Shown here in pieces: positions 17,944 to 18,228 of a DNA stretch of 32,831 nt (within the stretch, counting starts at the first letter, position 1; the number at the start of each line of letters is the position of its first letter). The stretch is from an uncultured Elusimicrobia bacterium. GTDB lineage: Bacteria; Elusimicrobiota; Elusimicrobia; Elusimicrobiales; UBA9959. The stretch spans positions 1 to 32,831 of the forward strand of contig CBDUMF010000002.1 of the NCBI GenBank assembly GCA_965368225.1, in the 5' to 3' direction. Position numbers and translations under genes: made by a program. The notes below the pieces were generated by a model, which was given only the letters and a program-made list of their open reading frames with translations, searched no databases and was not told the origin of the DNA.

Positions 17944-18228
17944 TCAACACCATCCGCCTCTCGCATGCGATCCGTGGGACCCATGGGAGCCGTGAGAGCC
18001 GTGAGAACCGTGACTCTGATGACTGACATGGTACCTTGAAGTAAAATAATTGGTGTGAATCTTGGCGTATGCCAGACCCGAATCCAGTATGGCTCCTCCA
18101 AGTATTCCCAACGCAAGACCTGTCTTGACTATGTCCGAGTCAAGCATCTTTCCCTCTTCGCTGCTTAAAAACAACTTCACATTCTTCAATGCCCGGTTTT
18201 TTCTTTTTTTATCATTTTTCTTCTTCAT
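17944..18228 (-). CDS. hxsA: His-Xaa-Ser repeat peptide, HxsA-like putative rSAM substrate (94 aa)
   Basis: Lys/Arg-rich N-terminus, Gly-zipper hydrophobic segment IVKTGLALGILGGAILDSGLAYA, then YHVSHQSHGSHGSHGSHGSHGSHARGGWC. Strong SD AAGGAG (18236-18241) lies 7 nt before ATG 18228. Confidence 0.8.
   Translation of the reverse strand: MKKKNDKKRKNRALKNVKLFLSSEEGKMLDSDIVKTGLALGILGGAILDSGLAYAKIHTNYFTSRYHVSHQSHGSHGSHGSHGSHGSHARGGWC
17965..18030 (-). repeat. Coding tandem 9-nt repeat encoding (His-Xaa-Ser)x7 plus a terminal His
   Basis: Codons CAT GTC AGT / CAT CAG AGT / CAC GGT TCT / CAC GGC TCT / CAC GGC TCC / CAT GGG TCC / CAC GGA TCG / CAT. The repeats differ at synonymous positions. Confidence 0.9.

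Follow-up and report, generated by a model that had tools for sequence, protein, structure and literature searches.

The only characterised Hxs system, the HXS system of E. coli, is an antiphage defence in which the matured effector HxsA blocks the entry of phage DNA from the periplasm, each of its His-Xaa-Ser (HxS) repeats being essential (Li et al., Nat Commun 2026, PMC13128918). Maturation of HxsA needs HxsB, HxsC and HxsD, all three cytoplasmic, and shifts the mass of an SHRSS motif by +8 Da; the matured protein is found in the periplasm. We describe here a short HxS-repeat gene, and the genes around it, in a stretch of 32,831 nucleotides from an uncultured Elusimicrobia bacterium (contig CBDUMF010000002.1; the whole stretch is called the window below). 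This open reading frame (ORF) is, in our judgement, probably a genuine, translated precursor of HxsA4 type, whose product would be modified in the cytoplasm by radical S-adenosylmethionine (radical-SAM) enzymes, exported, freed of its leader and put to use in the envelope together with a Cys-rich membrane protein, unk365. We infer modification, export, cleavage site and function from the peptide and its neighbours. The subfamily already has curated models and the parent HXS system was characterised in 2026; a literature search found no publication on the HxsA4 subfamily, and none on an Elusimicrobia layout of the order D-B-D'-X-A (HxsD, HxsB, the HxsD-like D', unk365 and the peptide) with a Cys-rich partner, an adjacent 12-domain radical-SAM array and an A24-like protein.

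With canonical HXS (PMC13128918) the locus shares tandem HxS repeats, HxsB and HxsD in the operon, an aromatic residue soon after the last repeat (SHYSGY in an Aeromonas HxsA, SHARGGWC in the window peptide), an N-terminus that looks fit for export and, as we would expect, export after radical-SAM maturation in the cytoplasm. Canonical HxsA, however, is a protein of ~190-214 aa whose basic HRS repeats lie towards the N-terminus and whose C-terminus carries a peptidoglycan-binding domain, whereas the window peptide has 94 aa, C-terminal HGS repeats and no other domain. (The 192-aa HxsA of an Aeromonas plasmid, for example, begins with an ordinary Sec signal peptide, has its basic HRS repeats close to the N-terminus and ends in a peptidoglycan-binding region.) The gene order also departs from the D-B-C-A of 99.6% of surveyed systems (PMC13128918), the module holds an extra Cys-rich membrane protein, and its host belongs to the Elusimicrobia instead of the Pseudomonadota.

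More distant likenesses exist. The triceptides, a group of ribosomally synthesised peptides with post-translational modifications (RiPPs) that includes HaaA/HaaB and HtkA/HtkB (PMC11499958), also combine repeated His-X-X in a small precursor with radical-SAM/SPASM enzymes; there HtkB and HaaB join His C2 to the C-beta of the third residue of HTK and HAA motifs, and by analogy a link from His C2 to a beta-carbon is plausible chemistry for H-x-S. The triceptide maturases belong to other families, however, and their precursors lack a signal-peptide-like leader. A cluster of Mucilaginibacter lappiensis (PMC9062424) likewise places a small precursor with a His-Xaa-Ser motif beside radical-SAM enzymes outside the Pseudomonadota, but those enzymes are unrelated to HxsB/HxsC, whereas the window encodes a true HxsB.

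The peptide gene and its family

The gene and the parts of its product, all on the minus strand, are as follows.

17944..18228, minus: gene of the peptide precursor (94 aa, stop codon included), with an HxsA4-type His-Xaa-Ser repeat; from the ORF and its translation
18236..18241, minus: Shine-Dalgarno-like AAGGAG, with a 7-nt spacer before the ATG, within the 3' end of the unk365 gene; read from the upstream sequence
18148..18228, minus: first part of the leader (aa 1-27), a Lys/Arg-rich N-terminus and the motif F-L-x-S-E-E-(G/A)-(K/R); from alignment A1 and family counts
18064..18123, minus: second part of the leader (aa 36-55), an uncharged stretch of 13 residues, TGLALGILGGAIL, followed by DSGLAYA; from family counts and orthologues
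17947..18063, minus: predicted core (aa 56-94), KIHTNYFTSRY, seven HxS units and HARGGWC; from alignment A1
17968..18030, minus: seven tandem His-Xaa-Ser units (HVS, HQS and five HGS); from a six-frame scan and the codon table
17947..17958, minus: C-terminal GGWC, with the only Cys of the peptide (Cys94); from family counts

The ORF translates as MKKKNDKKRKNRALKNVKLFLSSEEGKMLDSDIVKTGLALGILGGAILDSGLAYAKIHTNYFTSRYHVSHQSHGSHGSHGSHGSHGSHARGGWC and a stop codon. An earlier note on this DNA, which left the strand unstated, had given the last 28 residues as HVS-HQS-(HGS)x5-HAR-GGWC, in exact agreement with this translation. Its codon readings for the five HGS units can be read off the codon table unchanged, with GGT, GGC, GGC, GGG and GGA for Gly and TCT, TCT, TCC, TCC and TCG for Ser. 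The His codons alternate as well (CAC/CAT), all seven 9-nt units are distinct in DNA, and Tandem Repeats Finder describes the array as an imperfect repeat of period 9 (4.7 copies, 84% matches). In a six-frame scan of the window this is the sole run of three or more HxS units, with two units at two other places, which argues against an accident of composition.

The ribosome-binding signal claimed in the same note, AAGGAG at 7 nt from the start, was found at its place upstream of the ATG, inside the preceding gene: the start codon falls within the final codons of unk365 (stop at 18212..18214), and the resulting overlap of 17 nt suggests translational coupling of the two genes. At its other end the peptide gene stops 2 nt from the stop of a convergent HemN-like gene (17941-17944), without room for a terminator between them. 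The 94-aa HxS peptide is the sole candidate precursor visible in the window, and inspection of the intergenic gaps at 2488..2835 and 16256..16586 for a second precursor gave no convincing candidate.

The family to which the peptide belongs is best judged from profile scores. Among NCBIfam models, HxsA3 and HxsA4 alone match it. HxsA4 (NF038313, 93 positions) scores 27.5 bits, below its cut-off of 55, over residues 67-88, so that this alignment is limited to the repeat region; HxsA3 (NF038309, 81 positions) scores 26.4 bits, below its cut-off of 65, and aligns nearly end to end, with residues 15-88 on profile positions 7-79. The model of canonical HxsA (TIGR03979, cut-off 121.65 bits) gave no match at E <= 0.01. 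The scoring against HxsA profiles that had been proposed earlier thus returns two related models, both under their cut-offs, and the description of the peptide as an HxsA-like precursor is right in kind (HxsA3/HxsA4, in an operon with HxsB and HxsD) and wrong if canonical HxsA is meant.

The relatives place the peptide more closely. HxsA4 is matched by all 35 aligned relatives and TIGR03979 by 7 of the 35, weakly; four of ten relatives scored individually exceed the HxsA4 cut-off (P0001 with 77.8, P0003 with 70.8, P0004 with 63.5 and P0019 with 58.7 bits), and these four are about 56-64% identical to the window peptide (E 7e-31 to 5e-21). One homologue, in an Elusimicrobiales metagenome-assembled genome (MAG), is named HxsA4 by NCBI. 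Because close homologues pass the HxsA4 cut-off, and with small size as a further likeness, the peptide is, by its profile matches, a sub-threshold HxsA4-type member of an already curated subfamily. No Pfam domain, the peptidoglycan-binding domain included, was detected in it at E <= 10, the predicted mature part having ~39 residues, and scans of the peptide, unk365 and unk265 with Pfam, PADLOC and Rfam returned nothing useful.

Small proteins of the same build (69, of 70-144 aa) were found among 5.8 billion proteins searched. In species-representative genomes a scan found 22 loci, of which 19 encode a peptide of this build, their hosts being Elusimicrobia, one Omnitrophota genome or unclassified MAGs; in the other three (in Bacillus, Streptomyces and Pseudomaricurvus) the match is confined to the repeat region. 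For closer comparison, 24 peptide-bearing loci, almost all from Elusimicrobia, were fetched from genomes and metagenome contigs, and every one of them has exactly one such peptide. Against six orthologues, the first ~66 codons of the window gene give pN (nonsynonymous divergence) values of 0.14-0.27 and pS (synonymous divergence) values of at least 0.8, synonymous sites being saturated, and we therefore conclude that the protein is under strong selection. On its homologues, its orthologous loci and this pattern of substitution the ORF is a real, conserved gene. One MAG of Elusimicrobium minutum (contig DYIF01000003.1) carries two peptide genes ~45 kb apart (L010:1213-1554 and L012:9959-10312): one product ends in GSY, its gene being directly followed by a cysteine-desulfurase-like gene, and the other ends in GGWC and belongs to a full module.

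The earlier note had named a lack of conservation of the HxS repeat in orthologous loci as grounds for giving up its proposal; the repeats are kept at all 24 loci, with 3-19 units. Their number is by no means constant. The closest relative, at locus L004 of an Elusimicrobiaceae MAG, has 18 units against 7 in the window peptide, and the peptide genes of L004 and L002 contain runs of identical 9-nt units, so that in this family repeat number changes by duplication of units. The earlier claim that the repeat is maintained at the peptide level accordingly stands. That it owes nothing to recent slippage applies to the window copy, in which all seven units differ; in the family as a whole, slippage or duplication does alter repeat number, as the identical units of L004 and L002 show. 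Judged by the divergence of its units, the window repeat is an old, diverged array.

Leader, core and operon

Features of the family were counted in 70 members for the EE(G/A) motif and in 69 for all others. A basic N-terminus is general among them. The EE(G/A) core occurs in 69 of the 70 (G in 62, A in 7) and the full FLxSEE(G/A)(K/R) motif in all but a few, with L21, E24 and E25 invariant in alignment A1; it may be the site at which the maturase or HxsD recognises the leader. Further on, the uncharged stretch of the window peptide runs from T36 to L48, is flanked by K35 and D49 and is followed by AYA↓K, where the arrow marks the possible cleavage point. Across the family the stretch has a median of 13 residues (range 10-21), with K or R before it in 65 of 69 members, and in orthologues A-x-A-like sites stand directly before the H-T-N-Y-F motif. 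A median of 13 is the length of a signal-peptide core, not that of a transmembrane helix, and since 13 uncharged residues between K35 and D49 are followed by AYA↓K, the hydrophobic segment looks like the core of a signal peptide rather than a transmembrane anchor or a Gly-zipper. The Lys/Arg-rich start described earlier is thus present, while the 'Gly-zipper' placed at aa ~33-55 gives way to the 13 uncharged residues T36-L48. The A-x-A before K56 resembles a site of signal peptidase I, and cleavage may well occur there.

The same segment has to be considered as a permanent anchor, N-in/C-out, on a His-rich protein that stays unmodified and ends in a metal-binding or low-complexity tail, the radical-SAM genes acting elsewhere. 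The conserved GxxxG-like spacing in GLALGILGGA would suit such an anchor, as would the separability of the radical-SAM array from the peptide. We nevertheless regard this as very improbable: in most family members the uncharged stretch is only 13 residues long (bounded by K35 and D49 in the window peptide), HxsB and HxsD share an operon with the peptide at nearly every locus, and the invariant FLxSEEGK motif would be left without a role.

In the part that we read as the core, alignment A1 shows conservation of the HTNYF-like motif, of the HxS repeats and of the C-terminus. GGWC ends 30 of the 69 peptides scored, GGWC with one or two further residues another 4, and an aromatic end (GQW, GSW, GSY or similar) ~22. 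Cys94 would be the only possible thiol donor for PapB-like enzymes, if these act on the peptide at all. A search with the leader alone (aa 1-55) against 1.84 billion representatives gave nine matches, several of them short or truncated and one spurious, to a plant pentatricopeptide-repeat protein. Where a core was visible it was His-rich and mostly ended in GGWC, and nothing among the nine suggests that the leader also serves another type of core.

The genes that would act on the precursor lie upstream of it, on the same strand.

22361..22389, minus: promoter-like TTGACA-17-TATAAT (12/12) upstream of unk265; a match to the consensus only
21533..22330, minus: unk265, 265 aa, with a signal-peptide-like N-terminus, a TYYPSPYGGY motif and a Cys-rich C-terminus; from the translation
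21071..21520, minus: HxsD; TIGR03976 at 50.0 bits, exactly the cut-off of 50, and aligning with canonical HxsD
19657..21099, minus: HxsB radical-SAM maturase; TIGR03978 at 488 bits against a cut-off of 370, full length
19370..19675, minus: HxsD-like small protein (D'); TIGR03976 at 36.1 bits (cut-off 50) and HxsD_rel at 24.5 (cut-off 41)
18212..19309, minus: unk365, 365 aa, directly upstream of the peptide gene and overlapping it; an ORF without a family

The six genes of the module, in the order unk265, HxsD, HxsB, D', unk365 and, last, the peptide, recur in most of the Elusimicrobia loci and keep this order in relatives. The window HxsB shares 36% identity with the products of plasmid genes annotated as hxsB, and models of the XyeB, YhhB, GrrM and FxsB types match it weakly (43-56 bits against cut-offs of 310-450). 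D' aligns with canonical HxsD, and its orthologue in related loci is called as PF27806 HxsD. Upstream of HxsD, unk265 is kept at most loci; Pfam and NCBIfam scans matched it to no known family.

The partner directly upstream of the peptide is less easily placed. In layout unk365 starts with MKKK and a hydrophobic anchor of ~20 residues; a low-complexity linker leads to a domain that holds 15 Cys, and the tail is helical and rich in Lys/Glu. No family match was found in Pfam, NCBIfam or PADLOC, the homologue search returned a single relative other than itself, and the AlphaFold2 model, built on too shallow an alignment, is unusable (pLDDT 42). A gene of this type (330-377 aa, an N-terminal hydrophobic anchor, 12-14 Cys) nevertheless stands directly upstream of the peptide at 17 of the 24 loci. 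At locus L030 the flank and HxsD-HxsB-HxsD' are present and unk365 and the peptide are both missing, a joint loss which indicates that the two are a functional pair.

Put together, these elements suggest the following course. The N-terminal 55 residues would be a composite leader, its Lys-rich start and FLxSEE(G/A)K motif forming a handle for the cytoplasmic HxsB/HxsD machinery and its 13-residue stretch and AYA↓K a Sec-type signal-peptide core with its cleavage site. HxsB and the two HxsD-type proteins, probably with an HxsC-like enzyme of the adjoining array, would modify the core covalently in the cytoplasm, at the HxS repeats and/or the H-A-R-G-G-W-C end. Export in the N-in/C-out sense and removal of the leader, which would take away the invariant acidic motif (the putative maturase handle) along with the signal peptide, would then leave a His-rich periplasmic peptide of ~39 residues that acts together with the Cys-rich unk365. 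In the final and least certain step this peptide would serve as a multivalent His array in the envelope, binding metal or blocking incoming phage DNA as in E. coli HXS. The N-in/C-out orientation, already predicted in the earlier note, is the one to be expected from a signal peptide and the same as in the characterised system (PMC13128918). That modification would have to come before export had been raised there as a puzzle; since E. coli HXS matures in the cytoplasm and then appears in the periplasm, it is the published model and not a paradox.

Several observations weigh against this course of events. The peptide lies under the curated cut-off of every HxsA model, and in BLASTP it shows no significant similarity to the HxsA of an Aeromonas plasmid beyond the repeats (E = 1.8). 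An acidic segment such as its SEEGKMLDSD, placed between the basic N-terminus and the hydrophobic residues, is not what one usually finds in a Sec signal peptide. No HxsC stands next to HxsB: no protein of the window reaches the cut-off of TIGR03977 (267.9 bits), the best score being 171, and for HxsC4 (cut-off 500 bits) the best score in the window is 156. The best HxsC-like protein (7130..8104), with 25% identity to Aeromonas HxsC (E 2e-30), is encoded ~10 kb off in a separate transcription unit. Finally, locus L031 of genome GCA_040753515.1 has a radical-SAM array with no peptide within 10 kb, and at L030 of genome GCA_016234365.1 the array is fused to D-B-D' without a peptide, which makes the link between array and peptide uncertain.

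The adjoining radical-SAM array and the flanks

Beyond the stop codon of the peptide the window is largely given over to radical-SAM genes; with the HxsB of the module, the window encodes 13 radical-SAM proteins and 14 domains in total.

16586..17941, plus: convergent HemN-like radical-SAM gene between the peptide operon and the array; hemN at 156 bits, below the cut-off
1646..16256, minus: 11 radical-SAM proteins (12 domains) in an array that also holds an A24-like membrane protein; from family scans
5970..7133, minus: unk387, a polytopic membrane protein of 387 aa related to A24 (type IV leader/prepilin) peptidases; from Pfam matches of its relatives
413..1645, minus: class-V aminotransferase, cysteine-desulfurase-like, closing the array

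The HemN-like gene is separated from the array by a divergent gap of 330 nt and has no counterpart at the corresponding position of L004, the closest relative. Two further HxsB proteins (473 and 372 bits), seven proteins with HxsC/HxsC4-like domains, all below cut-off, and two PapB-like SPASM enzymes make up the array. Among the seven is an 821-aa fusion (9469-11934, minus) of a HemN-like radical-SAM domain (residues ~81-465) with an HxsC-like one (~531-750); its ORF as listed shares 167 nt with the next upstream gene (11768-12724), so that the real start codon may be an internal one. A collinear array is present in L004, L002 and L008, and radical-SAM content varies between loci. A cysteine-desulfurase-like gene also closes the array in L006, L020, L021, L030 and L031; a dedicated supply of sulfur for Fe-S clusters would fit such a gene. 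A functional link between array and peptide may be supposed.

If that link is real, the peptide and unk365 could be the exported end of a larger maturation system, in which up to 14 radical-SAM domains (three HxsB, seven HxsC-like, two HemN-like and two PapB-like), joined by the A24-like peptidase and the cysteine desulfurase, converge on one peptide. What it makes would be an envelope factor with heavy cross-linking or a cofactor- or metallophore-like molecule, specific to Elusimicrobia, and the system would be akin to the radical-SAM arrays found with the nitrogenase-like paralogues of groundwater Elusimicrobia. We think this rather improbable.

The membrane protein of the array, unk387, deserves separate treatment. 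The window protein itself has no Pfam match, a Foldseek search of its AlphaFold2 model (pLDDT 89.9) against the PDB gave no match with E < 1, and a profile of the unk387 family retrieved from PDB sequences only chance matches to designed proteins. Six of ten relatives, however, match PF01478 (Peptidase_A24; best E 1.4e-7), three homologues bear the NCBI name 'prepilin peptidase', and D23 (in EDxxxRKIPN) and D96 (in WPAGDAKF) are invariant in 35 sequences. As Foldseek against the PDB found nothing, assignment to A24 rests on the Pfam matches of relatives and on the two invariant Asp residues. An unk387-type gene persists at L030, where the peptide is missing, and in the array of L031, and a further family member (L032:3474-4676) sits in a cluster of nitrogenase-like (Oxidored_nitro/NifH) and radical-SAM genes of the kind described for groundwater Elusimicrobia; the gene thus follows the radical-SAM array and not the peptide. 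The nitrogenase-paralogue cluster of Méheust et al. 2020 was considered as the identity of the present locus and rejected, the window being without nitrogenase-like genes. At L026 (L026:10249-20255, GCA_041643015.1, from outside the Elusimicrobiaceae) the peptide gene is directly followed by an A24-like gene and then by genes for a pseudopilin (N_methyl), PilM, PilO and a secretin.

An A24-like protein in the cluster invites a prepilin-like reading of the leader, in which a class III leader would be cut by the product of 5970..7133 at the cytoplasmic face of the membrane, after G26 (EEG↓K) or G37 (K-T-G↓L), and the mature product would keep the hydrophobic stretch, anchored by it in the membrane or in the manner of a pilin, with the His-rich tail outside. 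Flp prepilins have F-L-x-D-E-x-G↓A-T-A-I-E-Y, to which the peptide leader bears some likeness. EE is followed in every case by G (62) or A (7), G or A nearly always takes the second place of the uncharged stretch, and K or R precedes that stretch; like class III precursors the peptide has a basic N-terminus and a conserved small residue before its hydrophobic stretch. The A24 relationship of the unk387 family, and the overlap at L026 of the A24-like gene with the stop codon of the peptide, would be in keeping with such processing. What makes it distinctly unlikely is, first, the distribution of the A24-like gene just given, which tracks the array. Moreover, G26 is followed by the polar KMLDSDIVK, unlike in pilins, and G37 by just 11 hydrophobic residues; no Flp or pilin model matches the peptide; the conserved A-x-A site could already account for removal of the leader; and the window unk387 has neither an A24 match of its own nor a hit in the fold search. 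A dedicated role of the A24-like protein as leader peptidase of this peptide was tried as the main explanation and demoted, as its gene persists where the peptide is absent.

On the other side of the module the right flank (22442-32734) encodes PhoH2 (PIN+PhoH), myo-inositol-1-phosphate synthase, BamA, Skp/OmpH, LpxD, LpxC, FabZ, LpxA and LpxI. This is core envelope biogenesis, syntenic in relatives, and the PhoH2 and BamA neighbours recur beside the Hxs module in several Elusimicrobia genomes. Its synteny marks the locus as part of the chromosome, passed on vertically, and not as a mobile island. Between PhoH2 and the Hxs module L002 and L030 carry a pair of genes for a barnase-like ribonuclease and a barstar (L002:5016-5953; L030:5079-6053) which the window does not have.

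Possible roles in the envelope

If the peptide is matured and exported as we propose, defence against phage by the E. coli mechanism is an obvious candidate for its function, with the variation in repeats and radical-SAM genes as the trace of an arms race. Besides the precedent of the parent system, the range of repeat number among relatives (3-19) with its recent unit duplications, the differences in radical-SAM content between loci and the barnase-barstar pair inserted beside the module in relatives are what one might expect of a defence locus. Other features fit less well. HGS repeats, unlike the basic HRS of canonical HxsA, weaken the electrostatic argument for binding of DNA, and the peptidoglycan-binding domain that is essential in E. 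coli HxsA is lacking. The chromosomal position, flanked by PhoH2, BamA, Skp and LpxD, is constant in several Elusimicrobia lineages, no mobile-element genes were seen, and in the published survey 99.7% of HXS systems belong to Pseudomonadota (PMC13128918). We therefore consider a defence function somewhat unlikely, and rank the binding of a metal or a partner in the envelope slightly above it, because the repeats are HGS and not basic HRS, no peptidoglycan-binding domain is present and the locus is vertically inherited.

In the HXS system studied so far the 214-aa effector forms inclusion bodies and reconstitution in vitro failed (PMC13128918). The peptide family described here offers a naturally minimal Hxs substrate, with a core of ~39 residues, seven HxS units and a GGWC end in the case of the window peptide, and together with the compact HxsD-HxsB-HxsD' set it could make Hxs modification directly testable. 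It also shows that mobile defence islands in Pseudomonadota are not the only home of Hxs-type machinery. In Elusimicrobia this machinery is encoded at a vertically inherited chromosomal site, with another partner protein and an unusually large radical-SAM array adjoining it, and its role there may not be defence.

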